The notes beneath the pieces are model-generated. The model saw only the letters and a list, made by a program, of their open reading frames with translations. It was not told the origin of the DNA and ran no database searches. Position numbers and translations under genes: made by a program. 32,602 bases of DNA. Origin: a virus (Duplodnaviria; Heunggongvirae; Uroviricota; Caudoviricetes). Of this stretch, positions 1 to 31,486 are shown piece after piece. The stretch lies in the IMG/VR virus record IMGVR_UViG_2698536533_000006; one strand, written 5' to 3'. How positions within the stretch are numbered: the first letter of the stretch is position 1; every line of letters begins with the position of its first letter.

Positions 1-1
1 G

Positions 2-199
2 CTATTACCTTCTTCAGAGAGCCCCCAGCTACTTCCTGTGACTCTCGATGCAGCTGCCGAACAGCCAGAATCGCTCGCAGAGGACCCGAAAACCCTCAGT
101 ATCAGCTGTGAGGTAACGTTCCGGCACGGGACGCTCCGCTTCAATGGCAATGTCAGCGAAAAGCTCCTGACTCTGCTGATACAGGAACTGAAGCGATGA
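2..199 (+). CDS. IS66-family TnpA (orf1), C-terminal fragment cut by window start
   Basis: Open frame from base 2 to TGA at 197-199 (tail ...VSEKLLTLLIQELKR); stop overlaps the next ATG in ATGA, the usual IS66 orf1/orf2 junction. Confidence 0.55.
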   Translation, partial: LLPSSESPQLLPVTLDAAAEQPESLAEDPKTLSISCEVTFRHGTLRFNGNVSEKLLTLLIQELKR

Positions 200-519
200 T
201 CCCGTTACCTTCCGGGATCAAAATTTGGCTGGTTGCCGGTATCACCGATATGAGAAATGGCTTCAACGGCCTGGCTGCGAAAGTACAGACGGCGCTGAAA
301 GACGATCCCATGTCCGGCCATGTTTTCATTTTCCGGGGCCGCAGCGGCAGTCAGGTTAAACTGCTGTGGTCCACCAGTGACGGACTGTGCCTCCTGACCA
401 AACGGCTGGAGCGTGGGCGCTTCGCCTGGCCGTCAGCCCGTGATGGCAAAGTGTTCCTTACACAGGCGCAGCTGGCGATGCTGCTGGAAGGTATCGACTG
501 GCGACATATAACCAGGTGA
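196..519 (+). CDS. tnpB: IS66-family accessory protein TnpB (orf2)
   Basis: 107 aa beginning MIPLPSGIKIWLVAGITDMRNGFNGLAAKVQ...FIFRGRSG...LLW, recognisable as IS66 orf2. No tnpC follows; the last codons may be phage-derived. Confidence 0.85.
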   Translation: MIPLPSGIKIWLVAGITDMRNGFNGLAAKVQTALKDDPMSGHVFIFRGRSGSQVKLLWSTSDGLCLLTKRLERGRFAWPSARDGKVFLTQAQLAMLLEGIDWRHITR

Positions 520-520
520 A

Positions 521-680
521 TCATTTGATACCGACAAGGGGTTTAGTGAAAGGAGGTGAAATCACCTGTAAGATACTGAAATAAAACAGGTGATGGCTAG
601 ATGTGCGGATAAGGTCTATTTGATACCGATTGTGCAATAATTAGTCATTTATTATAAAATCGGCAACTCATTTGATACTG
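521..680. repeat. Three direct repeats of a 13-bp motif at the prophage left end; candidate transposase binding sites
   Basis: TCATTTGATACCG at 521-533, CTATTTGATACCG at 616-628, TCATTTGATACTG at 668-680, all in the same orientation within 170 bp of the junction. Confidence 0.5.
555..592. promoter_or_regulatory. Overlapping palindromes between end repeats 1 and 2; candidate protein-binding site
   Basis: GGTGAAATCACC perfect palindrome at 555-566 and CACCTGT(16 nt)ACAGGTG inverted repeat at 563-592. Confidence 0.3.
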
Positions 681-733
681 TGGTTTTAGTCTTTTAAGGC
701 GTTCCAAACAATGCGAAATACTCGATATAGTGC

Positions 734-765
734 AAAATGCGGGCTAATGCTATTAACCCGCTTTT
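734..765. terminator. Bidirectional intrinsic terminator-like hairpin at the 3' end of the repressor gene
   Basis: AAAA, GCGGG (739-743), 13-nt loop, CCCGC (757-761), TTTT; it overlaps the repressor stop codon (753-755). Confidence 0.4.
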
Positions 766-1298
766 GGTTCTACCGCGTTAGATTTGCGACTTCTCTCAGT
801 TTCTTCCAAAATCTCTCTGACGCGTTCGTCAGACATACCTTCAAGCTGTAATGCAGCTATTCTTTTCCTTCCTTCTAAGCGGATTAGATCTTGATTTTCA
901 GGCTCTAACAACCGAGCTAAGTACTTGGCTCCATTCAGAACCAAATTTTTCGATAGCTGCTCTAAGTCTTTTTCATCAAGTGCGCTGATAATCGTCATAA
1001 TTATCTTCTTGCTTTCATCTTGATTTTCCTTGATCTCACACCGATTCACTTGTGATGCATCACTGAATCCACATAGCCACTCAACACTTACTCCTTCGAT
1101 AGACGCAATCTGAAGGGCGACACTTAAGGATGGCTCAGTGCCACGAGACAGATAATTGTTTAGTGTTGAAAATGAAAGCCCCCAATCTCTTGCTGCAGCT
1201 CTGACGCTGCGGGAGCCAATCAGCCTTTTCAGACGCTCAGCAATGCTTTCTTTTCTACCACCAGGAAAAGAAAGAGATGTTGTTGTTTGCTTGTTCAT
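753..1298 (-). CDS. Prophage repressor, XRE/CI-type helix-turn-helix
   Basis: 181 aa, leftward and divergent from the early operon as for Mu c; HTH-like segment WGLSFSTLNNYLSRGTEPSLSVALQIASIEGVSVEWL; RBS GGAAGAAAAG upstream of the ATG. Confidence 0.75.
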   Translation of the reverse strand: MNKQTTTSLSFPGGRKESIAERLKRLIGSRSVRAAARDWGLSFSTLNNYLSRGTEPSLSVALQIASIEGVSVEWLCGFSDASQVNRCEIKENQDESKKIIMTIISALDEKDLEQLSKNLVLNGAKYLARLLEPENQDLIRLEGRKRIAALQLEGMSDERVREILEETERSRKSNAVEPKAG

Positions 1299-1457
1299 TT
1301 TCTTTTCTTCCTATCAATTTGAAATTATTNNNNNNNNNNNNNNNNNNNNNNNNNNNNNNNNNNNNNNNNNNNNNNNNNNNNNNNNNNNNNNNNNNNNNNN
1401 NNNNNNNNNNNNNNNNNNNNNNNNNNNNNNNNNNNNNNNNNNNNNNNNNNNNNNNNN

Positions 1458-1593
1458 AGCTGGCGTGGGTCAGAACAATCTGTACAACGCGGTATACCGC
1501 CATGTTCCCAAGTATGAGGGGATTATCGCGGAATGCCTGGGGGTGCCGCCCGAGGAGATTTGGCCCAGCCGCTACATTCGTAAGGTCGCGTAA
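1458..1593 (+). CDS. ner: Ner-like DNA-binding protein, C-terminal part (start lies in N run 1330-1457)
   Basis: Visible tail ...NAVYRHVPKYEGIIAECLGVPPEEIWPSRYIRKVA resembles the Mu Ner C-terminus (EVIWPSRY); sits directly upstream of the transposase. Confidence 0.7.
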
Positions 1594-1595
1594 TT

Positions 1596-3683
1596 ATGTT
1601 TGCTTCAGTTAAAGAACTGGTTGGATTACCGGGGATGCCGGGAACGGAGCAAGGCGTTCGCTATTCAATCAGGAAGTATGCAACCAGCGAAACCAGCAGA
1701 CGCCGCAAGAAAGGCGCTAAAGGTTTTGAATACAGCATTGACTGTTTACCTGAAGTGACACAGCAGGCATTACGCGAACGTTATGCCCTGCAACTGATGA
1801 CGCAAAAAGCCGATGAATCACCGGCTCCGGTGGTGACAAAGGCCAGACGCTCGTCTGCCGTGGTTGATGCGGTGGAGGCATATCGCGGATCACCACAACT
1901 GATGGTCGAACGCCTCAATGCCCTGACTGAAAACCAGCGCCAGGTGGCAGACGCACGCATTGCGATCGTCAGTGAGGTGCTGAAATTCACGCAACAACCC
2001 GGTTTCAGCTGCGCTAAAGCTATCCGGTTCCTCGTTAACAGCCTGGCACGATCACAACTGGACGAGCGCATTGTGGCAATGGTTGAGACGGCGAACGCCA
2101 AAAAGGGAAACAGCCGCGCGTTGAGTGAAATCACGCTGAAACGCTGGATTGCGGCCTTTAACAAGGCACAGAACGCCGCTGAACGCCTGCTTTTACTGGC
2201 ACCGGGTAAACGCCAGGAAATAAAAGCCGAAGATATTAACTGGCTGCCCGAATTTCTGGCGCAGTATCGCCAGTCAAACGGCCGACCAATGACCGAGGCT
2301 TACGAGGATTTTGTTGCTGAATGGCAGCACCGGCACGCTGATGAGCCTTATATGCTCGATATCATGCCCTCTTATGACACCATTCGCCGCGCAATGAAGA
2401 AACTGCCGGAAGTGGTGAAACAAAAAGGCCGGGTAACTGGCAGTGAATACCGTCAGCTTGAGGGATTCACGCGCCGCGACTGGTCCAGAATGCCGGTGAA
2501 TTATGTCTGGATTGGTGACGGTCACGGCATGAAGCTGAAATGCGCGCACCCGGTTCACGGGCGGCCATTCGCACCGGAAGTGACCTTTGTTATCGACGGT
2601 GGCACGCGCTTTGTGGTGGGCTGGAGCCTTGACCTGGCTGAAAATGTTTTCGCCGTAGCCGGTGCCATACAGCACGGTATTCGCCATCATGGCAAACCGT
2701 TTCTGTATTACTCGGATAATGGCTCCGGGGAAACCGCCGACGTCCTGGATAAGGAGATTGTGGGGATACTGCCACGACTGGGGATTAATCACCCGACAGG
2801 GATTGCCGGTAATCCGCAGGGACGGGGCATTATCGAACGGCTTAACCGCACATTACCGATGCGCATAGCCCGTAAATACCGCACCTATTTCGGGAAAGGA
2901 GCAGATCGCGAGACGTTACGTAAAACCAACCGCGATTTACGCTCGGCATTCAGTGCCCTGCAACAGGGCAAACGGCTGAACGCCCGGCAGCAGTCAGCGA
3001 TGCGTGATTTACCGTCCTGGTCTGAACTGATTGATGCCATTCGTGACGGTGTTGAGTGGTACAACAACCGGCCGCACGATGAATTACCCATGAAGCCGAA
3101 CGGTAAACATTACAGCCCGGCGGAGTTCAGAAAAAAACGCCTGGCGGAAGAGGACACGGAAATTGAATGGCTGTCCGATGTTGAACTGCGGGATATGTTC
3201 CGGCCGATGGTGGAGCGCCCTGTAAGACGCTGTGAAATACGCTGGCTGAATAATATTTACTACGCGCCCGAGCTGCGTGACGAGCATGGCCGTAAGGTAC
3301 TTATCAGCTATGACATTCATGATGCCGAACGAATTACCGTGCGCCGCCCGGATGGCAGCGTGATTTGCGAGGCGGTATGGGACGGCAATAAACGCGAAGC
3401 CTTCCCTGTCAGCGCGGAATACTACAAACAGCAGCAGCGCCTTAAAGGCATGCGTAAACGCGCAGAGGAAAAAATCCGTGATGCCGAGGATGAGGTTGTC
3501 AACGTGCTGGAGCACAAGCCGCAGGAGCCCTGGCTGGAAAACATATACCGCCCTGTGGGTAATACGGTGACCGTTCAGCAACCGGTCGCTGACGATGAAC
3601 CTGATGAAGAATACGAGCGTAATTTCCAGCGGGGATTGCAACTGCTCGAAGCGAAATTAAAAGAAAGTGATCCGCTGGCCTGA
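1596..3683 (+). CDS. MuA-like DDE transposase
   Basis: 695 aa; N-terminus (SVKELVGLPGMPGTEQGVRYSIRKYA...KGAKGFEYSIDCLPEVTQQAL) resembles the MuA DNA-binding domain; size and position after ner match Mu A. Confidence 0.9.
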   Translation: MFASVKELVGLPGMPGTEQGVRYSIRKYATSETSRRRKKGAKGFEYSIDCLPEVTQQALRERYALQLMTQKADESPAPVVTKARRSSAVVDAVEAYRGSPQLMVERLNALTENQRQVADARIAIVSEVLKFTQQPGFSCAKAIRFLVNSLARSQLDERIVAMVETANAKKGNSRALSEITLKRWIAAFNKAQNAAERLLLLAPGKRQEIKAEDINWLPEFLAQYRQSNGRPMTEAYEDFVAEWQHRHADEPYMLDIMPSYDTIRRAMKKLPEVVKQKGRVTGSEYRQLEGFTRRDWSRMPVNYVWIGDGHGMKLKCAHPVHGRPFAPEVTFVIDGGTRFVVGWSLDLAENVFAVAGAIQHGIRHHGKPFLYYSDNGSGETADVLDKEIVGILPRLGINHPTGIAGNPQGRGIIERLNRTLPMRIARKYRTYFGKGADRETLRKTNRDLRSAFSALQQGKRLNARQQSAMRDLPSWSELIDAIRDGVEWYNNRPHDELPMKPNGKHYSPAEFRKKRLAEEDTEIEWLSDVELRDMFRPMVERPVRRCEIRWLNNIYYAPELRDEHGRKVLISYDIHDAERITVRRPDGSVICEAVWDGNKREAFPVSAEYYKQQQRLKGMRKRAEEKIRDAEDEVVNVLEHKPQEPWLENIYRPVGNTVTVQQPVADDEPDEEYERNFQRGLQLLEAKLKESDPLA

Positions 3684-3988
3684 AATAAAAAAATAACCCG
3701 AGGGGTGACTCAGGTTATTTGAGGTTTCAGTCTCNNNNNNNNNNNNNNNNNNNNNNNNNNNNNNNNNNNNNNNNNNNNNNNNNNNNNNNNNNNNNNNNNN
3801 NNNNNNNNNNNNNNNNNNNNNNNNNNNNNNNNNNNNNNNNNNNNNNNNNNNNNNNNNNNNNNNNNNNNNNNNNNNNNNNNNNNNNNNNNNNNNNNNNNNN
3901 NNNNNNNNNNNNNNNNNNNNNNNNNNNNNNNNNNNNNNNNNNNNNNNNNNNNNNNNNNNNNNNNNNNNNNNNNNNNNNNNNNNNNNNN

Positions 3989-4705
3989 CAGTTTGTGGAA
4001 ACTCAGACAGTCCAGGAGCTGCGCGCACTGTTTCAGGCGGTTCGCCTGATGGGCTGTATTAACGTTATTGTGGGCGTACCGGGTGTGGGTAAAACGGCCA
4101 CTGCCCGTAATTACTGCCAGGAGCAACCAAACACCTGGATGATCACCCTGTCACCCGCGCACTCCAGCGTCACGGAGTGTCTGCTGGAGCTGGCCGATGC
4201 GCTGGGGATTGATTACACCCGCGCGAACAAAGGGGCATTATCCCGCGCCATCCGCCGTCGCCTGATGGGAACGCGTGGACTGGTGATTGTGGATGAGGCG
4301 GATCATCTTGGTATTGACGGTCTGGAGCAACTCCGGGCAATTCAGGACGCCACGGGGATCGGGATGGTGCTTATTGGTAACCCGCGCGGATTGTTTAAAG
4401 GTGGACGCCGCGCCTTTGATGATTTATCGCGCCTGTTCAGCCGTCTTGCCCGTACAAAACAACTTCGCAAGGCCAAAAAGGCGGATGTGCTGGCCATTGC
4501 CATGGCGTGGGGGATCAGTGGTGAGGCCGAGCTGGCCGTCATGCAGGCTATCGCTGAAAAGCCGGGAGCGTTACGCGTTCTGACACATACGCTTAACCAG
4601 GCGTGGCTCACCGCCAGCGGTGAAGGCGCGGCGCTGACAGAAAAACATATTAATGCGGCCTTTAAAGAGGTTTATACCAACCCTGAATTACTCTCACAGG
4701 TGTGA
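3989..4705 (+). CDS. MuB-like transposition ATPase, start hidden in N run 3735-3988
   Basis: Walker A motif GVPGVGKT and Walker B-like VIVDEADHL; directly downstream of the transposase. True start is somewhere between about 3720 and 3988. Confidence 0.85.
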   Translation, partial: QFVETQTVQELRALFQAVRLMGCINVIVGVPGVGKTATARNYCQEQPNTWMITLSPAHSSVTECLLELADALGIDYTRANKGALSRAIRRRLMGTRGLVIVDEADHLGIDGLEQLRAIQDATGIGMVLIGNPRGLFKGGRRAFDDLSRLFSRLARTKQLRKAKKADVLAIAMAWGISGEAELAVMQAIAEKPGALRVLTHTLNQAWLTASGEGAALTEKHINAAFKEVYTNPELLSQV

Positions 4706-4929
4706 TTATGGCGGTATTTAATATTCCTGATATTTACGGACGCTTTTACCTGGTTAATTTCGATAACGTGAAGGTGATTTCACTGGCCGAAAATAAAGAA
4801 TGTGGCGATTTACTTTTTGAATTTAATGACCGCACACGAATGGTGATATCTGCCGGACTTGATCGCGAAGGTGCGACAGAAGTTTACAGCGGAATATGCC
4901 GTTCTGTTGGTGCGAAACAAGTCAGCTAA
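4702..4929 (+). CDS. Small early protein (75 aa), in the position of Mu kil
   Basis: ATG overlaps the B stop (ATGA); no recognisable motif. The kil assignment is by position only. Confidence 0.45.
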   Translation: MIMAVFNIPDIYGRFYLVNFDNVKVISLAENKECGDLLFEFNDRTRMVISAGLDREGATEVYSGICRSVGAKQVS

Positions 4930-4941
4930 ATGAGGTGTTAT

Positions 4942-5196
4942 ATGAATATGCAATCCTGCGGTAACAAAATGAATTTATTCGACTCCCTGAACAGCGCGCG
5001 CCGTCTGACCGAACTTGCCGGTGCGGTACTGGAACGCAGTAAGCGCTATCCGCAACGTTTTGCACTGAAAACCACGCCGCCGGTAGGCAACGTGCAGGGA
5101 ACCGGTGAAATTGAAATCACCATACAGACCAACGGCCTGCGCCGCCGTGTGAAGGCCACCCGCATCAGCGGCTGCACGGTTTACTGGGAGGTGTGA
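4942..5196 (+). CDS. Small early hypothetical protein
   Basis: ORF with GAGGTG RBS 4 nt upstream of the ATG at 4942 (the in-frame ATG at 4930 is an alternative); translationally coupled to neighbours. Confidence 0.45.
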   Translation: MNMQSCGNKMNLFDSLNSARRLTELAGAVLERSKRYPQRFALKTTPPVGNVQGTGEIEITIQTNGLRRRVKATRISGCTVYWEV

Positions 5197-5197
5197 G

Positions 5198-5479
5198 GTG
5201 AAAAAAAATCTCATTGCATGGGCGTGGTCGAGTGGTCTTATTGAGTTTGGTTACGTCCTGCCGGAAGGTGCATTGCCGATAGTTGCCGGAAAGCCTGCCA
5301 CGGTACGGCATGTGATTGAGGTTATGGCGCGTCATGGACGTGATGAACAGGAGCAGTTACTGGTTCCGGGGATACCGGAAGCGGTGACGGAGGAAGAAGC
5401 CTTTAATGCCATGATTCGGTTCTGCCGTGAGGTTAGACGCCGGGTCAGTTATCCAAACAGAACGAGGACCAGAGGATGA
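5198..5479 (+). CDS. Small early hypothetical protein (93 aa, GTG start)
   Basis: GTG start 1 nt after the previous stop, preceded by GGGAGGTG. Confidence 0.45.
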   Translation: MKKNLIAWAWSSGLIEFGYVLPEGALPIVAGKPATVRHVIEVMARHGRDEQEQLLVPGIPEAVTEEEAFNAMIRFCREVRRRVSYPNRTRTRG

Positions 5480-5748
5480 GTAAAGTCGTACGCATTATTT
5501 TCGAATACAAGGAAGATGTTATCTGCAAAAACTCTGATGGCAGCACGCACAGAGGGGTAAGTCTGGATATACGTTCAACCGGAATAAAGAAGAAAGATAA
5601 TGGACCCGCCATGATTTTTGGGGTGGTTATGCTGGCAGAAAGCAGAAACTTCGCAGAGTTTGTGGCAATGAAAGCCAGTGCATTCATGAAAGACAGAGGC
5701 ATGGCTTCCGGGGTTATTAACGGTAATGAATTTAATCAACAGGGGTAA
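5476..5748 (+). CDS. Small early hypothetical protein, paralog A (MSKVVRIIFEY...)
   Basis: ATG overlaps the upstream stop; N-terminus and an AEF-x-A-x-x-AS-F segment are shared with the next gene. Confidence 0.5.
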   Translation: MSKVVRIIFEYKEDVICKNSDGSTHRGVSLDIRSTGIKKKDNGPAMIFGVVMLAESRNFAEFVAMKASAFMKDRGMASGVINGNEFNQQG

Positions 5749-5752
5749 TTCC

Positions 5753-6046
5753 ATGAGCAAAGTACGCGTTATTTTTGAATTTAATCATGTTTCGCATGAC
5801 GAAAAGTTGGCAGGCAATGACTGTGTTGAAGTGCATGAAAAGATTGGAGTGGATGTGAAAACAGAACGTGATACGGATAACAGGCCGACGTCACTCTGTG
5901 ACGTTTATGCAAGTATTCTCCAGTATCACAGTCCTGCAATTATTCAGTTTCTCTCAGCGGAATTTCAGGCATCTGCACAGTCTTTTGGAGCGGATGCCAT
6001 CATTAAACGCCACCGCGTGCATAAAGCATCAGGCACACTGCAATAA
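5753..6046 (+). CDS. Small early hypothetical protein, paralog B (MSKVRVIFEF...)
   Basis: ATG at 5753 with AGGGG RBS; N-terminal similarity to the 5476 gene. Confidence 0.5.
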   Translation: MSKVRVIFEFNHVSHDEKLAGNDCVEVHEKIGVDVKTERDTDNRPTSLCDVYASILQYHSPAIIQFLSAEFQASAQSFGADAIIKRHRVHKASGTLQ

Positions 6047-6057
6047 GGAAAAACAAA

Positions 6058-6588
6058 ATGGCTAAACGCGTTACAAAATTAAAGGCCGCAGCCGAGGCGG
6101 CACCGCAGACCCGGGAAGAAGTCAGCCGTGATATCCGCACCCTGGGAGATATTCAGCGAGAGGCGCTGCGCCTGGAAACGGCGATGAATGACGAAGTGGC
6201 AGAAATCACCGCCCGTTATACGCCGCAGATTGAAAATCTTAAAAAGCAAATCAAAGTGCTTTTTAAAGGGATTCAGGACTGGTGCAAAACCAACCGTGAT
6301 GAGCTGACGAACGGCGGCAAAACCAAAACAGCCAATCTGACCACCGGAACGGTGTCATGGCGGCTGGGAACGCCATCATGCAGCGTCAGCCGTGATGTGG
6401 AAGGTGTGATTGAAATGCTGCGCCGTATGGGGCTTGAGCGTTTCATCCGCACGAAAGAGGAAGTGAACAAGGAAGCCGTCCTGGCGGAGCCGGATGCTGT
6501 GAAAGGCATTGCCGGTATCAAGGTGAATAAAGGCGCTGAAAGTTTTTATGTCGAGCCTTTTGAACAGGACGCCGGACTGAATAAATAA
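6058..6588 (+). CDS. gam: Gam-like host nuclease inhibitor (Mu Gam family)
   Basis: 176 aa; extended similarity to Mu Gam (MAKRVTKLKAAAEAAPQTREEV...LGDIQREALRLETAMNDEVAEIT...NGGKTKTANLTTGTVSWR...FIRTKEEVNKEAVLAEP...EPFEQDAG). Confidence 0.9.
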   Translation: MAKRVTKLKAAAEAAPQTREEVSRDIRTLGDIQREALRLETAMNDEVAEITARYTPQIENLKKQIKVLFKGIQDWCKTNRDELTNGGKTKTANLTTGTVSWRLGTPSCSVSRDVEGVIEMLRRMGLERFIRTKEEVNKEAVLAEPDAVKGIAGIKVNKGAESFYVEPFEQDAGLNK

Positions 6589-6733
6589 CACCGCATTAAT
6601 CAATTAAATATCACTTCATTTTAATTATGGCGCTCGCGTCAGGGGACTGCTTGCGCCTGAAAACAGAAAATAAGGGTTAAGAAATATGAAATACGTTTAT
6701 ATCGTCATTAATAATGTGGTGGGGAAATAAATC

Positions 6734-6914
6734 ATGATTGATGCAAAAGTGCTTGAAGGGGTTAAAAACTGGCTGTGTATTTATGGCCGCCTGACCTGCG
6801 GTGTACTGGCTGAAAAAATGAATATGCCGCCATCCTCCATGGTTTATTTTCTGCGTGATGCGGTTGATGCAGGCGTGCTGACGGAATGTAACGGTTTTTA
6901 TGATATTCCGCGTC
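6734..6914 (+). CDS. Hypothetical protein, N-terminal part (runs into N run 6915-7209)
   Basis: ORF beginning MIDAKVLEGVKNWL... with RBS GGTGGGGAAA; the C-terminus is not visible. Confidence 0.4.
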
Positions 6915-7238
6915 NNNNNNNNNNNNNNNNNNNNNNNNNNNNNNNNNNNNNNNNNNNNNNNNNNNNNNNNNNNNNNNNNNNNNNNNNNNNNNNNNNNNNN
7001 NNNNNNNNNNNNNNNNNNNNNNNNNNNNNNNNNNNNNNNNNNNNNNNNNNNNNNNNNNNNNNNNNNNNNNNNNNNNNNNNNNNNNNNNNNNNNNNNNNNN
7101 NNNNNNNNNNNNNNNNNNNNNNNNNNNNNNNNNNNNNNNNNNNNNNNNNNNNNNNNNNNNNNNNNNNNNNNNNNNNNNNNNNNNNNNNNNNNNNNNNNNN
7201 NNNNNNNNNCTGCCGGGATATCTGCGGAGGTGGCGTAA

Positions 7239-7753
7239 TGTTCTTTAAAACATCAAACCCTTCCGCGCTGGCTGCGTGGCAAAAATACCAGCAGGACTGC
7301 CAGAAAGTTAAGGATGAGGCAAAACGCCTTGAGGCCGTGCTGAATGTTGCGTGCCGGTCGGTATTTGTATCCGGTATCAGTGGATTTTACTTTAAGGGAC
7401 TGCGTTTTACGGAGGACAAATATCCTTTTCATCGCGACTTATGGCGAAAACCGACTGCGTCGAATGGCTGGAGCTGCACACCGCGCACATCACGTATCCC
7501 TAAAACCCTGCGTGTTGCCTCTGATGAACTGAACAGTCTGTGGCGTGAATATTCGCCCGTCACGTATGCCAGAACCGATGCGCTGTTGTTCTGGTTGGGT
7601 ATTGATTTCTCGGCAATCCTGTTTGGCCCTGTGAAGTGGTTCTGCGTTGACGATGTGATTTACCTTCAGTGCGGCGTAAAACCCGCAAAACAGAAAATGA
7701 CCGAAATACTGTCTGATGAGTTTTATGCTGCTGAAAAGCGAGTCAGGGGGTGA
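7239..7753 (+). CDS. Hypothetical early protein (171 aa)
   Basis: ATG at 7239 preceded by GGAGGTGG; an upstream frame ends with TAA at 7236-7238 (TAATG coupling). Confidence 0.5.
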
Positions 7754-7756
7754 TGC

Positions 7757-8308
7757 ATGATGAAATTACAACCCATGGGACTAAAAGGTCGCGCCCCCGC
7801 TCATGTCCGTCCGTGGACACCTGAAGAAGATGCGCTGCTGATTGCGCTTTATTCATCCACCCCGGTTAAGGATATTGCTGCCAGAATAAAAAGAACTGTC
7901 TGGGCTGTATATAACCGGACTGGTGTATTGCGCAGTTCATACCCGGAGTTACTGAAATATAAACACCCAAGATTTACACCTGATGAAGATAAGTTTATTC
8001 GAAAAAATGCCAGAACAATGACCTGCCAGCAAATGGGAGAATATCTCGGACGTAATAAAGATTCTGTCAGATGTCGGGCAGGAATGATTGGTGCTGGATT
8101 AACAAAGTGCGGAGAGTTACGCCCCGGCACGCGCATATCTGATGATGATGTACGTCTTATACGTGAGCTGCGTGATTCCGATTACCCACGCCGTCTGTCA
8201 TTCCGGGAAATTGGCGAAAAGTTTGGAATATCTGAACATTCTGCTCACGCAGTTTATTACCGTCGCCGGACTGCCGAGGACGCTGTATTACGGGAGTTAA
8301 CGCCATGA
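7757..8308 (+). CDS. Hypothetical DNA-binding protein with three internal HTH-like repeats
   Basis: 183 aa with three similar segments: WTPEEDALLIALY..., FTPDEDKFIRKNA..., ISDDDVRLIRELR...; lower GC than the phage average. Confidence 0.5.
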   Translation: MMKLQPMGLKGRAPAHVRPWTPEEDALLIALYSSTPVKDIAARIKRTVWAVYNRTGVLRSSYPELLKYKHPRFTPDEDKFIRKNARTMTCQQMGEYLGRNKDSVRCRAGMIGAGLTKCGELRPGTRISDDDVRLIRELRDSDYPRRLSFREIGEKFGISEHSAHAVYYRRRTAEDAVLRELTP

Positions 8309-8637
8309 TAACGACCTTATTTGTTGAATCAGATGAACCTCTTGTGTGTGCCGCCGGAATGCCGCTCTGTGGCGGAACGCTGACCGGCGTTTATTTCGGG
8401 GATTTGCGCGGTTATCCCTGGCATTCACTGGATGACGCATTTCCGCCTGATATGGAGGCTGTCGTGCTGATTGTTCAGTATGGTGACCAACAGGAACTGC
8501 GCATCGGCCATATGGGGTATGAAGGCTTTTTTATTGATGAAGAAACCGGAGCCTGCCTTGAAGATGAGGACGGACAGGTGACGCACTGGTGCCATCTTTC
8601 GGCCTTGCCGGAATTACAGGGGATACATAATGGATGA
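8305..8637 (+). CDS. Hypothetical phage protein, DUF551-like C-terminus
   Basis: 110 aa; C-terminal VTHWCHLSALPE resembles the DUF551 signature as I recall it. Confidence 0.5.
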   Translation: MITTLFVESDEPLVCAAGMPLCGGTLTGVYFGDLRGYPWHSLDDAFPPDMEAVVLIVQYGDQQELRIGHMGYEGFFIDEETGACLEDEDGQVTHWCHLSALPELQGIHNG

Positions 8638-8773
8638 GCAAATTGTTGAATGTCCCACCTGTGGAAATGAGGACCCGGAGTATCTGAAAGAGTGCCCACA
8701 TTGTGGTGAGATAAAATGTAACCACTGCGATATGGGCGACGACACTGCATGTATAAATTGTGAGGATGAATAA
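8630..8773 (+). CDS. Zinc-ribbon micro-protein (47 aa, four CxxC motifs); absent from the ORF track
   Basis: My translation: MDEQIVECPTCGNEDPEYLKECPHCGEIKCNHCDMGDDTACINCEDE; CAGGGG about 7 nt upstream of the ATG; stop TAA at 8771-8773. Confidence 0.45.
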   Translation: MDEQIVECPTCGNEDPEYLKECPHCGEIKCNHCDMGDDTACINCEDE

Positions 8774-8774
8774 T

Positions 8775-9062
8775 ATGGAAAAAGAAATCAAATTTGCGCC
8801 TAAATCTATCGACGAAGAACTGGCTAAAATCGGCATGCTTGAACGTATGCGGGACATTATCGAATATGCGATAAAAGAAAATCTTGCAGCCAGAGAAGCC
8901 CTTTTGATAATGGAGCGGGAGATTAACCTGATTAAGGATGCTGTATCTCTGGATAATAAAATAGCCCGCGAGGAATACGTTCGCCGTAGGCTCGGTGTTG
9001 ATGGTTCAGCAATTCTTACATCTGAACATTATGCAAAAATTTTTAATCTTTTTCAGCGGTAA
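8775..9062 (+). CDS. Hypothetical protein (96 aa) in a low-GC segment
   Basis: ATG at 8775 two nt after the zinc-ribbon stop; protein MEKEIKFAPKSIDEELAKIG...; local GC is visibly lower than the flanking phage genes. Confidence 0.5.
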   Translation: MEKEIKFAPKSIDEELAKIGMLERMRDIIEYAIKENLAAREALLIMEREINLIKDAVSLDNKIAREEYVRRRLGVDGSAILTSEHYAKIFNLFQR

Positions 9063-9282
9063 TCCCCATACAGGCCCGGAGATTGTCGAAATGCCAGTCG
9101 GTATTAATATATGAGCCATCCTGGATATCTTCTGCATTTTCCGGGGTAGAGTTTTTTTGAGCGAGATTGATAATATGTATTGCCTCCTCACGGGAAATCA
9201 GCCCCTTATCGAACAGGGTTACCATAAGATTTCCAGCCATTGTGAATGCGGCAACATCAAGTGCATTTTTTATATCTGACAT
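9043..9282 (-). CDS. Hypothetical protein (79 aa), convergent with the early operon
   Basis: Minus-strand ORF with RBS AAGGAAAAA 5 nt upstream of its ATG; 3' end overlaps the 8775..9062 gene by 20 nt; low GC. Confidence 0.45.
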   Translation of the reverse strand: MSDIKNALDVAAFTMAGNLMVTLFDKGLISREEAIHIINLAQKNSTPENAEDIQDGSYINTDWHFDNLRACMGITAEKD

Positions 9283-9310
9283 AGATTTTTCCTTTTATGT
9301 TAATTGACAT

Positions 9311-9338
9311 GGCGGTGCGGTAACACCGCCCATTTTTT
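9311..9338 (+). terminator. Rho-independent terminator-like hairpin upstream of the GemA-like gene
   Basis: GGCGGTG (9311-9317), loop CGGTAA, CACCGCC (9324-9330), then CATTTTTTAT. Confidence 0.45.
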
Positions 9339-9352
9339 ATGGAGCCACGATA

Positions 9353-9865
9353 ATGAATCGCGCTTCCCTGATTACCTTAATACATGTCGCAAAACGCGAT
9401 CTACAGCTTGACCATGATACCTATACATCCGCGCTGCTGGCAGCCACCGGCAAATCCAGTTGCCGTGATATGTCACCCGGTGAGTTATCCCGCGTGCTGG
9501 ATGTTTTCAAAAAACGCGGTTTTAAAGTGCGTCAGAAGCCGGTTAACCGGGCCTTAAAACCGGGTACGGTGACCGCCAAAATTCGCGCCATCTGGAAAGT
9601 GATGCACCGGCAGGGATTTATCTCTGATGGCGGGGAAACGGCCCTTAACCGCTGGGTGAAATCGCAGACGGCCGCGCAGAACGACGGCGAAGGTGTGGCT
9701 AACTGGCAGTGGCTGGAGCAACAACCCGCGCTGGCCTCTGATGTGCTGGAGCGTCTCAAACGCTGGCACCGCCGCAAAATGCTGGCAGCCCTGGATATGT
9801 CGGAACGTGCAGTGATGAGTTATGAGCGTGTTTGCAGGCTGTATGAAAAATCATTCCCCCGTTAA
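9353..9865 (+). CDS. gemA: GemA-like protein (Mu gp16 family)
   Basis: 170 aa; position immediately upstream of the Mor-like gene as in Mu; N-terminus (LITLIHVAKRDLQLDHDTYTSALLAATGKSS) fits my recollection of the gp16 family. Confidence 0.6.
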   Translation: MNRASLITLIHVAKRDLQLDHDTYTSALLAATGKSSCRDMSPGELSRVLDVFKKRGFKVRQKPVNRALKPGTVTAKIRAIWKVMHRQGFISDGGETALNRWVKSQTAAQNDGEGVANWQWLEQQPALASDVLERLKRWHRRKMLAALDMSERAVMSYERVCRLYEKSFPR

Positions 9866-9935
9866 CCCCAAATCCCGCCACAGCGCGGGATTTTTATTTT
9901 AAACTTGCCCTGTGTAATGATGACCGGAGGCGGGT

Positions 9936-10358
9936 ATGGCTGAAACACAGATGAGCATGTTTGGTGACAGCGAACAGCTGCACGCGCTGATTGACCGTCT
10001 GGATGATATTCCTGATGATGAGCTGAAAAAGAACTGGCCCGGCACGCTGCGGGACCTGGTTGATGTGATCAGTGCTGAACTGCACCGTCAGGGGATTGAA
10101 CCTGCTCAGGCGGGAATGCTTGCCCGTAAGGTTGCAGCCGCACAGGCCGGGTACATGGGCGGGCGTGGTTATTATCTCCCGGTCGGTGAATCCCTTTTCA
10201 CCGAACTGCGCAATAATGAAATTTTTTCCCGCTGGAGCCAGGGCGAAAAAATTGAAACCCTGCGCCGCCACTACCAGATGTCAGAGACGCAGATTTACTC
10301 CGTTATCCGCAACCAGCGTCGCCTGCATCAGGAACGCACGCAGCCACGGCTTTTCTGA
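9936..10358 (+). CDS. Mor/C-family transcriptional activator
   Basis: 140 aa; strong RBS GGAGG; acidic N-terminus and C-terminal HTH-like region (IETLRRHYQMSETQIYSVIRNQRRL) resembling Mu Mor and C. Confidence 0.75.
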   Translation: MAETQMSMFGDSEQLHALIDRLDDIPDDELKKNWPGTLRDLVDVISAELHRQGIEPAQAGMLARKVAAAQAGYMGGRGYYLPVGESLFTELRNNEIFSRWSQGEKIETLRRHYQMSETQIYSVIRNQRRLHQERTQPRLF

Positions 10359-10429
10359 TATTCCGCAAATCCTGCCCCCTTTTCCTCACGGTTACGCTGA
10401 CTCAGAGAACACCATGAGACAGCGTAACA
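10359..10429 (+). promoter_or_regulatory. Candidate Mor/C-dependent promoter region upstream of the lysis cassette
   Basis: 71-bp non-coding spacer between the activator gene and the endolysin gene; assignment is by position only, no motif confirmed. Confidence 0.25.
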
Positions 10430-16504: not shown

Positions 16505-17832
16505 TTTAGGTTATGCCGCCACGCTTCCCTCAAAAGAGACGGTGGCATACTTCCGCGCCAAAGGGGCGCATATCAGCTGGAACTGGTTCGAAACAGACGC
16601 GGATGTTCATGCCCGCTCATTCACGGCAGCAAAAACGGCACGGCTGGATGTGGTAACCACATTACAGGCCGAAGTGCAGCGGGCCATTGATGAGGGGATT
16701 TCACAGAAAGAATTTATCCGCACACTGACGCCACGCCTGCAAAAGCTGGGATGGTGGGGAAAGCAGATTGTGGTGGACAGCGACGGTAACGCGGAAGAAG
16801 TGCAGCAGGGCAGTCCCCGTCGTCTGGCGCTGATTTACAACGTGAACACCCGTGTGGCTTACAATGCCGGGCGTTACACGCAGATGATGAACAACACGGA
16901 CACGCATCCGTTCTGGCAGTATGTGGCGGTCATGGACAGCCGTACCCGCCNNNNNNNNNNNNNNNNNNNNNNNNNNNNNNNNNNNNNNNNNNNNNNNNNN
17001 NNNNNNNNNNNNNNNNNNNNNNNNNNNNNNNNNNNNNNNNNNNNNNNNNNNNNNNNNNNNNNNNNNNNNNNNNNNNNNNNNNNNNNNNNNNNNNNNNNNN
17101 NNNNNNNNNNNNNNNNNNNNNNNNNNNNNNNNNNNNNNNNNNNNNNNNNNNNNNNNNNNNNNNNNNNNNNNNNNNNNNNNNNNNNNNNNNNNNNNNNNNN
17201 NNNNNGGCGCCAGAACCATGACACCGGATGTGGGCTGGTCATATAACCCCGGCTCGGCAGCGTTCGGCACAGACCAGGCGCTGATCCGCAAACTGATCGA
17301 GGTGAAAAGCCCGGCGTTACGGGAAATGGTGGTTCAGGAGATGAACAACAGCCCGGAGCGGCAGCTGGCGTTCCGCATCTGGGCAAAAAACATCATGCAG
17401 ACCCGGCGAGGTGGTAACGATATCCGCACGCTGGGCTTTATGACTGAAAGCATTGCGCAGGCAGTGGAAAGCCGGACGGGAACGCCACCGGCCCGCCTGC
17501 TGGCGATGAGCGGTAAAAATGTGCTCCATGCGGACAGTGTGAAACATCAGAATGACGGCATCGCTCTGACGCCGGAGGACTTCGGGCGCTTACCGGCAAT
17601 GCTGGCAAGGCCAAAAGCGGTACTGTGGGACAAACGGCACAACAATCTGATGTATATCGTGGAAAATCAGGATGGCAGTGTGCAGATTGCCGTTAATGCA
17701 CCGTACAGTCTGAAACGTCAGCCCGACAAACTGGATGTGATTGTGAATGCTTACCGGGTTATCAATATGGATAAGCTGAAATCGGATATCCGGGGCGGAA
17801 TGCTTGAGGTGCTGGAAGGACAAATTGATTAA
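16488..17832 (+). CDS. Head morphogenesis protein (Mu F / gp30-like), interrupted by N run 16951-17205
   Basis: Open frames on both sides of the gap with combined size near Mu gp30. Frame continuity across the gap cannot be verified. Confidence 0.6.
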
Positions 17833-17916
17833 CGGTCAGTGGCGGGGGTCGAACCCGCATACATGATCCACCCGGAGGCAGGCACCGACTTTACCAGTTA
17901 AGCGTACACTGACCGC
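17833..17916 (-). other. tRNA-like structured element (9-bp closing stem plus T-arm-like hairpin); not a canonical tRNA
   Basis: CGGTCAGTG (17833-17841) pairs with CACTGACCG (17908-17916); inner hairpin GCGGG-GGTCGAA-CCCGC reads GCGGGTTCGACCCCCGC on the minus strand. Confidence 0.3.
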
Positions 17917-19738: not shown

Positions 19739-20685
19739 TGCCTACCCCGATTACACCGGCGATGATCACCGCCCTGATGACGGGCTACCGTTCTGATTTT
19801 CAGGCCGGGATGTCCATGGCTCCGTCGCAGTACCAGAAAATTGCGATGACCGTGCCGTCCACCTCGAAATCCAACACCTACGGCTGGCTGGGGCAGTTCC
19901 CGCAGTTCCGTGAGTGGATCGGCTCCCGCGTCATCGAGAAGATGAAAGCCTATGGCTACGCCATCGTGAACAAAACCTTTGAAGGCACCGTTGCCATTAG
20001 CCGCGATGACTTTGAAGACGACAATCTCGGCATCTACTCCCCGTTATTCCAGGAAATGGGTCGTGCCGCTGCGGCACAACCGGATGAACTGGTCTTTGCT
20101 GCACTGCGTGATGGTCTGAATGCGGCCTGCTATGACGGCCAGAACTTCTTTGATACCGAACACCCTGTTTACCCCAAAGTGGATGGCTCCGGTGATGCAC
20201 AGATGGTCAGCAATATGTTTGTGGCAAAAACCGGCTCTGTCGGTGCACAGGCGGATTACAGCGGCCCGGCCTGGTATCTGCTTGACTGCTCCCGCGCGGT
20301 AAAACCGCTGATTTATCAGGATCGCCGCAAAGCCGAACTGGTTGCCCAGACAAAAGTCGATGAAGGCCGTGCGTTTACTGATAACGAGTTTGTGTTCGGT
20401 GCTTCCGCCCGTCGCAATGTGGGCTACGGCTTCTGGCAGATGGCCTACATGATGCAGTCACCGCTGACGCTGGATGCGCTGTGGCACGGCTGGTCAGCCA
20501 TGCGTGACTTTAAGGCTGACGGTGGCCGCAAACTCGGCATCAAACCCACCCATATTGTTGTCCCCACCTCGCTGGAAAAACAGGCGGTGCAGCTGCTGGA
20601 GCGCGAGCTGTTCGCAGACGGTAACGCCACAGTCTCTAACGAGATGAAGGGCAAGCTGGAGCTGGTTGTCGCGGATTATCTGTAA
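19738..20685 (+). CDS. Major capsid protein (Mu T-like)
   Basis: 315 aa; ATG overlaps the gene I stop (TAATG); position and size match Mu T. Confidence 0.8.
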   Translation: MPTPITPAMITALMTGYRSDFQAGMSMAPSQYQKIAMTVPSTSKSNTYGWLGQFPQFREWIGSRVIEKMKAYGYAIVNKTFEGTVAISRDDFEDDNLGIYSPLFQEMGRAAAAQPDELVFAALRDGLNAACYDGQNFFDTEHPVYPKVDGSGDAQMVSNMFVAKTGSVGAQADYSGPAWYLLDCSRAVKPLIYQDRRKAELVAQTKVDEGRAFTDNEFVFGASARRNVGYGFWQMAYMMQSPLTLDALWHGWSAMRDFKADGGRKLGIKPTHIVVPTSLEKQAVQLLERELFADGNATVSNEMKGKLELVVADYL

Positions 20686-21058: not shown

Positions 21059-21331
21059 NNNNNNNNNNNNNNNNNNNNNNNNNNNNNNNNNNNNNNNNNN
21101 NNNNNNNNNNNNNNNNNNNNNNNNNNNNNNNNNNNNNNNNNNNNNNNNNNNNNNNNNNNNNNNNNNNNNNNNNNNNNNNNNNNNNNNNNNNNNNNNNNNN
21201 NNNNNNNNNNNNNNNNNNNNNNNNNNNNNNNNNNNNNNNNNNNNNNNNNNNNNNNNNNNNNNNNNNNNNNNNNNNNNNNNNNNNNNNNNNNNNNNNNNNN
21301 NNNNNNNNNNNNNNNNNNNNNNNNNNNNNNN

Positions 21332-29974: not shown

Positions 29975-30404
29975 TATTGCAATTGTATGGGATCAGGGGT
30001 GCGGTTCGCTGCAACTGAACGGTGCCGACTTGCTGACGGATGACAGTCTGCTGACGGCCGTTCTGATTTCGCTGTTTACTGACCGCCGGGCGCTGGCATC
30101 GGATGAAATCCCTGACGGTACGCGCGACCGCCGGGGATGGTGGGGAGACAGTTTTCGCCCGCGCCCCATTGGCTCCCGTCTGTGGCTTCTCAGCCGGGAA
30201 AAAACGCTGGCCTCGGTGATAAGCCGTGCCCGTGCTTACGCGGATGAGGCGCTGGGCTGGCTCAGTCAGGATGGCGTGGCGTCATCCGTGGTCTGTCATG
30301 CAGAACGTGTGGGACACGCGCGGCTGGCGCTTTCGGTGCGCATAACCCTGCCTGATGGTTCAGTGAGGCCCATGATTTTTTATGCTGATCTTAAGGGGGA
30401 GTAA
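29967..30404 (+). CDS. Baseplate protein (Mu gp46 / gpW-like)
   Basis: 145 aa; ATG overlaps the upstream stop (ATGGCTGA); position before the J-like gene. Confidence 0.7.
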   Translation: MADIAIVWDQGCGSLQLNGADLLTDDSLLTAVLISLFTDRRALASDEIPDGTRDRRGWWGDSFRPRPIGSRLWLLSREKTLASVISRARAYADEALGWLSQDGVASSVVCHAERVGHARLALSVRITLPDGSVRPMIFYADLKGE

Positions 30405-31486
30405 TGCCTTATCAGCCTTTACCGCTGGCACAGTTAATCACGCAGACACAGCAGGATATCAGCCAGCGCCTGCCCGGCTCGCAGCCGGGTGTGAATGAAA
30501 CCACCCTGAATGCCATTGCTTACGCTCAGGCAGGGTTATCTGCTCAGGAGCATGAGCATCTGGCCTGGATTGCGCGTCAGATCATCCCGACCGAAGCCGA
30601 TGAAGCCGAACTGCTGAAACACTGTGCATTCTGGGGCGTCATGCGTAAGCCTGCCTCTCGGGGGGACGGGCCGGTTCAGCTGATGCTGACCACGGATGCG
30701 GGGATCAAGGAAGGTGTGCTTCTCCAGCGAAGTGATGGCGTGGTTTACCGTATCACCACCTCCCTGACCGGTAAGGCCGGTACGCTGAATGTCAGTGTGG
30801 AAGCCGAAAGTGCCGGTCGTGCGGGGAATGCCCCGGCAGGGACAAAACTGACATTTATCACACCGCAGGCGGGGATCAACCAGACGGCCACGGTGACCGG
30901 AACGGGGATCACCGGTGGTGCGGATGTGGAAACCGTGCCGGAGCTGCTTTCCCGTCTGGTTTTCCGGGTGCAGAATCCACCGTCCGGCGGCACGCAGTAT
31001 GATTTTGAACGCTGGGCGCGTGAAGTGCCGGGCGTGACGCGGGCATGGTGCCGCCCGGAATGGCCGCAGGCGGGCAGCGTGGGGGTAACGTTTGTTCAGG
31101 ATAATAACCCGGATATTTTCCCCGGTGACGGTGATGTTCAGCGGGTGGCGGATTATATCCGCAGTCATGATGATCCGGCGACCGGCCAGCCTGTCGGACA
31201 GCCTCTGGGGCCGACGGTGACCGTGTTTAAACTGACCAATAAGCCGGTGCCCTTCAGCATCAGGATCATCCCGAAAACACCGGAGAATCAGGCGGCCGTA
31301 AAACAGGCGCTGACCGACCTGTTGTATAACGAATCCCGGCCCGGCGGTCTGGTTCTGCCGTCGTCTTTCTGGCGGGCGGTGGCAGGGGTGAAAAATCTGG
31401 AGGATTTTGAAGTGCGCAGTCCGCTGACGTCAGTTCAGGCGGGAGACAGTGAGCTGCTGACGGTAGGAGAAATCACATGGCTGTAA
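30404..31486 (+). CDS. Baseplate J-like protein (Mu gp47)
   Basis: 360 aa; TAATG coupling with gp46; position in the baseplate block. Confidence 0.8.
   Translation: MPYQPLPLAQLITQTQQDISQRLPGSQPGVNETTLNAIAYAQAGLSAQEHEHLAWIARQIIPTEADEAELLKHCAFWGVMRKPASRGDGPVQLMLTTDAGIKEGVLLQRSDGVVYRITTSLTGKAGTLNVSVEAESAGRAGNAPAGTKLTFITPQAGINQTATVTGTGITGGADVETVPELLSRLVFRVQNPPSGGTQYDFERWAREVPGVTRAWCRPEWPQAGSVGVTFVQDNNPDIFPGDGDVQRVADYIRSHDDPATGQPVGQPLGPTVTVFKLTNKPVPFSIRIIPKTPENQAAVKQALTDLLYNESRPGGLVLPSSFWRAVAGVKNLEDFEVRSPLTSVQAGDSELLTVGEITWL

Follow-up and report, generated by a model that had tools for sequence, protein, structure and literature searches.

A transposable phage of the Sp18 type very probably integrated by transposition into a resident ISEc22-like element of the IS66 family in the ancestor of a subclade of Shigella sonnei Lineage 3. 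The left junction of the two elements lies near the beginning of the stretch of viral DNA analyzed here (32,602 nt, hereafter the window). When the window was aligned base by base with an intact IS66 element (L015), identity was lost abruptly past base 506: the intact element reads on GCCTAAGCGG, the window TATAACCAGG. The break falls after IS base 780 of 2442, 37 nt short of the tnpB stop codon, and base 507 is the first base of a Sp18-like transposable prophage, 5′-TATAACCAGG... The proposal made in the initial annotation, that a Mu-like prophage had inserted into a resident IS66 copy, is borne out, as the phage terminus directly abuts an internal IS66 position between bases 506 and 507. That annotation had placed the insertion directly after tnpB, considered tnpB intact up to 519 and located the junction near 510–520; the junction is real, its position is not, the break sitting inside tnpB. 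The alignment of 1–519 with intact IS66 elements, which it had put forward as a check, was run, and identity stops after 506.

Comparison of bases 1–1320 with all complete E. coli genomes (megablast) yielded two clean sets of matches. Bases 1–506 match annotated IS66-family tnpA/tnpB at 99.6%, and bases 506/507–1320 match a prophage end that adjoins many different chromosomal genes; among these genomes, no single record spans both 1–506 and 507–1320. Sequence searches found the junction in no plasmid and in no complete E. coli genome.

On the IS66 side, the window begins with the 3′ part of tnpA (orf1; 1–199, plus strand), which comprises about the last 65 codons and is 99.6% identical in nucleotide sequence to intact ISEc22-like tnpA. 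The native tnpB follows at 196–506 (plus strand), with codons 1–103 and the CA of codon 104, its start overlapping the tnpA stop in an ATGA at 196–199. The element was assigned to the IS66 family from this tnpA tail and from tnpB, which matches Pfam TnpB_IS66, both IS ends lying outside the window and tnpC being absent from it; the 65-aa TnpA tail alone gave no Pfam match. Bases 1–506 differ from intact IS66-family elements at two positions, 218 and 376, and TnpB carries the changes T8I and G61S relative to the nearest copies in E. coli. The reading frame continues into the phage up to base 519 and encodes a chimeric protein of 107 aa, TnpB(1-103)::HITR-stop (196–519, plus strand), that still matches TnpB_IS66 (E 1e-37). 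As shown by the alignment to L015, the native last 12 codons (QPKRLLTSLTML) are replaced by H-I-T-R-stop; the H codon is made up of CA from the IS and T from the phage, and the remaining codons of the tail are phage-encoded. The initial annotation had anticipated that the tnpB product might end in this manner, in a few phage-encoded codons.

The intact element L015 is 2442 bp long, has GTAAGCG... inverted repeats, is flanked by an 8-bp duplication and carries tnpC, which begins 49 bp beyond tnpB. It represents a plasmid-borne, uninterrupted allele of the same IS66 copy, with the same Tn3-fragment/GTAAG left junction. Among the TnpC proteins clustering at 90% with that of the intact copy, some carry the NCBI name "ISEc22 family". 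The left boundary of IS66 in the S. sonnei chromosome is situated within the Tn3-transposase fragment that also harbors the plasmid-borne intact copies, and its flank is the same as theirs. Judging by this common flank, the IS66 copy interrupted in the window was resident and once whole. ISEc22-like elements and the window copy resemble each other in their tnpA-tnpB part, 99.6% identical; the window copy differs in that it is split after base 780, in that its tnpB has acquired a foreign tail, in that tnpC and the right inverted repeat do not lie within the window, and in that, in the genomes carrying the junction, the left inverted repeat and tnpA have been struck by other IS elements.

Because the break lies precisely at the phage terminus and at an internal position of IS66, the left junction alone is enough to tell which element entered the other: the phage transposed into IS66, and not IS66 into the phage. 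Two other readings, an IS66-family variant simply devoid of tnpC and an IS66 element inserted beside a pre-existing prophage end, would account for the absence of tnpC from the window, and nothing else speaks for them. The IS sequence ends internally and not at the inverted repeat GTAAGCG..., the 99.6%-identical intact copies carry tnpC, and insertion of an IS would have left an IS terminus, not a phage terminus, at the boundary. A tnpC-less variant, which had been named as the case that would refute the insertion, is contradicted by the uninterrupted allele L015, and the Tn3-fragment flank shared with the intact copies disposes of both readings, which we regard as extremely improbable. The absence of tnpC from the window is instead due to the phage that transposed into IS66. 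A sequence that would contradict phage insertion, if present inside an intact IS66, is TATAACCAGGTGAATC. An example of the reverse arrangement was encountered in UGEP01000005.1 (L048 7296–9612), where a related Mu-like prophage carries, between its Gp45 and Gp46 genes, an IS66-family element (109-aa ORF, TnpB_IS66, DDE_Tnp_IS66 transposase).

Several features were observed to the left of the window. In the S. sonnei chromosome CP176614.1 (L001 6757–9805, left of window base 1), an IS110-family element is present in the left inverted repeat of IS66, and tnpA is interrupted by an IS3-family element (1264 bp; 3-bp duplication). Window base 1 is the exact end of this IS3-family insertion, which suggests that the source contig broke at that repeat. 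In CWZC01000017.1 (L002 1–92), the end of an IS1 abuts IS66 base 10. Further to the left of IS66 in the chromosome (L001 1–6756), the neighborhood is plasmid-like: it includes a replication-initiator fragment, a colicin-E1-type immunity gene, a DUF6404 gene, an IS3-family element and the Tn3 transposase fragment, and is 97–98% identical to F-type E. coli plasmids with senB nearby.

On the phage side, bases 507–700 (plus strand) correspond to the left end (attL) of the Sp18-like prophage, with the terminus TATA at 507–510, as defined by many independent insertions of this phage in E. coli and Shigella. Independent copies of the prophage at unrelated E. coli loci (a sgrR-like gene, bcsA, paaA, a diguanylate cyclase gene, sorM and many other loci) begin to match the window at 506/507, and the same element was found next to more than 20 different flanks. 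Five complete relatives (L041–L045), located in four E. coli chromosomes and in O157 Sakai (Sp18), are 38.4–39.0 kb in size; all five start with T(A/G)TAACCAGGTGAATCATTTGATACC and finish with ...AAAAAATCGCCGCGCTATA. On the right, some twenty further copies extend to the same base and diverge past it. As relatives and further copies share a common end base, window base 507 must be the first base of the phage.

The repeats typical of a transposable-phage end that the initial annotation had described next to IS66 are there, as three direct copies (plus strand) of the transposase-site core TTTGATAC, at 524–531 (L1), 619–626 (L2) and 671–678 (L3). With one more copy at 20149, the octamer occurs four times in the window versus 0.75 expected, a number reached in none of 100 shuffles. 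In the complete relative L041, the last 80 bp contain three inverted copies of the same octamer, and at each end of that prophage the first TTTGATAC site lies 19 nt from the terminus. The right repeat array was read in L041, the same array of the window's own copy being located outside the window. The leftward repressor that had been described next, an immunity repressor, is found as well, as an ORF of 181 aa at 753–1298 (minus strand). Its matches to HTH_3 and to the CI-repressor helix-turn-helix are weak, both below the Pfam cut-offs; the source annotations of the ORF are XRE-family or transcriptional regulator, and the protein shows no sequence relation to the Mu c repressor.

The prophage part of the window (507–32602, plus strand) runs from the early region through mor and the genes for lysis, head, tail and baseplate into the beginning of the tail fibre gene. 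The whole prophage amounts to about 38.6 kb, with the invertible segment, com, mom and attR in the approximately 6.4 kb past the window end. Five runs of N mask parts of the window (1330–1457, 3735–3988, 6915–7209, 16951–17205 and 21059–21331). They do not preserve length, 128 N standing for 248 real bases and 295 N for 324; downstream window coordinates are therefore shifted with respect to the real contig. By comparison with L001 and L002, the first run (1330–1457; 248 real bases) masks the divergent early control region together with the beginning of a ner-like early regulator gene, the 3′ part of which is readable at 1458–1593 (plus strand; HTH_35). Unmasked, this gene spans L001 11288–11518, matches Pfam HTH_35 and encodes 76 aa in both L001 and L002.

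Downstream of the ner-like gene, at the left end of the prophage, a MuA-type DDE transposase and its MuB-type AAA+ partner are present. The transposase (695 aa; 1596–3683, plus strand) is a distant homologue of MuA, with Pfam matches to HTH_Tnp_Mu_1 and Mu-transpos_C and a weak match to rve; it is 23% identical to MuA (BLASTP), and in a PDB sequence search the MuA domain I-alpha was its sole match. The closest relatives among isolated phages are the Yersinia phages vB_YpM_5/6 (82% for the transposase). The MuB-like AAA+ target-capture ATPase (3735–4705, plus strand; Phage-MuB_C, AAA_22), the start of which is masked by the N run at 3735–3988, is 51% identical to Mu B (3989–4702 being the readable part). 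Rfam and tRNA scans of the window gave nothing. The PGAP annotation of relatives includes a 'tRNA-OTHER' between the genes for head morphogenesis and virion morphogenesis (L041 17974–18053, minus strand; about 17834–17913 in the window); neither ARAGORN nor Rfam finds an equivalent in the window. At the right ends of three relatives that are approximately 99.8% identical (L008, L036 and L039), a DNA methylase gene takes the place of mom after com, or a transposase gene interrupts mom, and the modification module of the phage group is therefore variable.

The distribution of the junction was followed through the exact 107-aa fusion protein. A protein look-up retrieved it from 108 contigs, all of them named Shigella sonnei, and from none other. 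In this look-up the fusion ORF was recorded on a single contig of more than 1 Mb, the closed 4.93-Mb chromosome CP176614.1, in which the left junction is situated between 1,015,139 and 1,015,140. N runs aside, window bases 1–10377 are 100% identical to CP176614.1 and to CWZC01000017.1. IS elements are a frequent source of misassembly, and this could invite the explanation that the junction is an assembly chimera, or else host DNA packaged at a virion end. Its occurrence in 108 contigs from independent assemblies, the closed chromosome included, and a host-side sequence that reaches more than 10 kb in CP176614.1 speak against either origin, and we give them next to no credence. The junction is a clonal marker of a subclade within S. 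sonnei Lineage 3, whose representative is genotype 3.7.30.4.1, that of CP176614.1 (strain 381259, UK, 2017; PMC12511311). The insertion had been described as datable; being restricted to a lineage, with its fusion protein in S. sonnei only, it is so in principle.

Related or near-identical copies of the phage are located at other sites in Lineage 1 (L011), in genotypes 3.4.1 (L052) and 3.7.11 (L038) and in strain 53G (L007); over 11 kb, that of genotype 3.4.1 and the window are 2 SNPs apart. As copies occupy different sites in S. sonnei, the phage has been mobile within the species and looks active in it. Whether the copies in 53G, Lineage 1 and genotype 3.4.1 go back to the insertion studied here was considered, and this was rejected: each has a right flank of its own, in no case IS66, and the look-up had recorded the fusion ORF on no more than one contig above 1 Mb. 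In a comparison with the Lineage 1 copy, 12 of the 13 differences cluster within about 860 bp (30116–30979), in Gp46 and baseplate J, which indicates a recombination patch and not point divergence.

The size of the target duplication was determined in the complete relatives. All five are flanked by 4-bp repeats (AACA, GACG, GTGA, TACG and TAAA). For two of them, reconstruction of the empty site with just one 4-bp copy gave matches of 296/296, in one piece, to uninterrupted paaA and bcsA. A 5-bp duplication and shifted ends (a start at ATAACC or an end at ...CTAT; 5- or 6-bp repeats) were tried on the five insertions and discarded, as the 4-bp parse alone accommodates every one of them. The 5-bp target-site duplication that had been expected for this phage family is hence replaced by one of 4 bp in its relatives (n = 5). 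In the window's own copy, the left flank alone lies within the window: GACA at 503–506, the last four IS66 bases before the phage, is presumably the left copy of the duplication, given the 4-bp duplications of the relatives.

The ends read TATA...TATA here and TGTA...TATA in Sakai Sp18, with TA on the transferred strands; the cleaved 3′ ends are TA on both sides here, and CA at the left and TA at the right in Sp18. Neither the canonical 5′-TG...CA-3′ ends nor the 5-bp duplication of Mu proper was found. Because of its TATA...TATA ends and the 4-bp duplication of its relatives, the prophage is a member of the Sp18 group and not Mu in the strict sense. A survey published in 2021 described TG-CA as conserved in all Mu- and B3-like phages described until then, with duplications of 5 bp for Mu and 6 bp for B3, reported TA-TA ends as new in Leptospira and posed their existence outside Leptospira as a question (PMC8705779). 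In the searchable literature we found no paper stating TA ends or a 4-bp duplication for Sp18-like phages, which is not proof of novelty. The facts on termini and duplication are solid; whether they had been documented earlier is uncertain.

The integration probably proceeded as follows. The MuA-like transposase (1596–3683) and the MuB-like ATPase (to 4705) would have assembled on L1–L3 and R1–R3, the 3′ TA ends would have been joined to target phosphates 4 bp apart at GACA, and gap repair would have duplicated GACA. The leftward repressor (753–1298) would then have silenced the early operon. By this route the far part of IS66, with tnpC and the right inverted repeat, would have been displaced by about 38.6 kb, a displacement that would leave the IS66 copy dead.

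The far junction lies approximately 6.4 kb past the window, and its matching tnpC half and GACA repeat are predicted; in CP176614.1 the right end is expected near 1,053,773, and in CWZC01000017.1 near 8,438 (minus strand). It is expected to read ...GCGCTATA, GACA and GCCTAAGCGG, followed by the tnpC half; the GACA in this prediction stems from the 4-bp duplications in relatives. In its longer form, the predicted right flank in CP176614.1 would read ...CGCCGCGCTATA GACA GCCTAAGCGGCTGCTGACC..., and the far side as a whole should consist of ...AAAAAATCGCCGCGCTATA GACA GCCTAAGCGGCTGCTGACCTCCCTGACCATGCTGTAA, tnpC, the IS66 right inverted repeat (...CACGCTTAC), AAACAAAA and the Tn3-fragment. Exact patterns of the left junction and of the right junction, in its 5-bp and 4-bp forms, are absent from viral and metagenome collections; as the left junction is missing there too, the absence of the right one is uninformative. 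A Mom-based scan of genome contigs retrieved only relatives, of at most 85% identity, and a search for homologous proteins a 96%-identical cluster representative alone. Look-ups with Gp48, the 374-aa baseplate protein and Gp46 led to other insertions or to collapsed identical neighborhoods, without junction carriers, and no lineage-specific protein was found in the right 10 kb of the window.

With the right junction outside the window, the phage left end may have been joined to the IS66 interior by transposition and the present arrangement still not be that of a simple insertion. Intramolecular replicative transposition by the phage could have produced a deletion or an inversion, or a later IS1-/IS3-family rearrangement could have separated the right end from the IS66 remainder; both routes predict a right junction devoid of the tnpC half and of the GACA repeat. 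The neighboring IS insertions that differ between junction carriers (L001 versus L002) and the near-identical phage copies at different sites in other S. sonnei lineages (L011, L052) are points in favor of such a history. Stable lysogens of transposable phages, as established for Mu, nevertheless arise normally from simple insertion, and the draft contigs (47,934 bp) continue about 8.4 kb past the predicted right end, a length compatible with a single-copy IS66 remainder, although no proof of it. We therefore hold an arrangement of this kind to be unlikely and retain simple insertion into the resident IS66 copy as the preferred reading. The region is rich in IS elements: in relatives, this IS66 copy has IS3-family, IS110-family and IS1 elements inside it or next to it, and a later rearrangement of the far side is possible.

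Among known phages, Sp18 of E. coli O157:H7 Sakai and the Sp18-like phages of STEC and Shigella are those that the prophage resembles in size (38.4–39.0 kb), in gene order, in variable insertion sites and in 4-bp flank repeats. Most early and head genes are 85–96% identical to those of Sp18 at the nucleotide level, the attR end is identical in the part that was compared, and the attL termini are nearly so (TGTAACCAGGTGAATCATTTGATACC). The two differ in the immunity region (78% over 506–899, with no alignment reported for 900–1711, which includes the N run 1330–1457), in the tail region (about 79% identical), in the left terminus (TG in Sp18, TA here) and in the site occupied, sorM in Sp18 and an IS66 tnpB of S. 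sonnei here. Sp18 and its relatives have been described as intact, packaged, non-circularizing Mu-like prophages at strain-specific sites (PMC2669165, PMC7430833). In STEC CC119, six out of ten Sp18-like copies are inside mobile elements (PMC10132054), and an insertion into IS66 is therefore unremarkable.

The likeness to Mu extends to the gene order (leftward repressor, ner, A, B, kil, gam, mor, lysis, head, tail, invertible fibre segment and com-mom), to three transposase sites per end, with L1 apart from L2/L3 and R1–R3 packed, to near-random integration and to the 51%-identical MuB homologue. The transposase, only 23% identical to MuA, the unrelated repressor and the different sequence of the transposase sites set the prophage apart from Mu, as do TA...TA ends versus TG...CA and a duplication of 4 versus 5 bp (values for Mu from PMC8705779). 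With the TA-TA prophages of Leptospira (WETA1 group), it shares the non-canonical TA at both ends and the nature of a transposable prophage of about 38 kb; those prophages, however, are described with a B3/Tn552-type transposase and 6-bp duplications, in contrast to the 4 bp and the enterobacterial host found here (PMC8705779). Sp18-type phages of E. coli and Shigella may constitute a mechanistically distinct branch of Mu-type transposition, with a transposase distant from MuA, TA at the cleaved 3′ ends and a 4-bp cut; we see the case for and against such a branch as evenly balanced.

The event itself is of an ordinary, well-understood kind and serves chiefly as a lineage marker. It holds little biological surprise: a phage that transposes near-randomly struck one of the many IS copies of Shigella, one already battered. 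The junction between 506 and 507 and the TnpB::HITR protein provide an exact, easily searched clonal marker, and the 27-mer GACTGGCGACATATAACCAGGTGAATC a junction tag for the S. sonnei genotype tree. The ends and the duplication are of possible interest for transpososome geometry, and Sp18-like prophages should be delimited by seeking 4-bp repeats and T(A/G)TA...TATA, not the 5-bp repeats and TG...CA of Mu.
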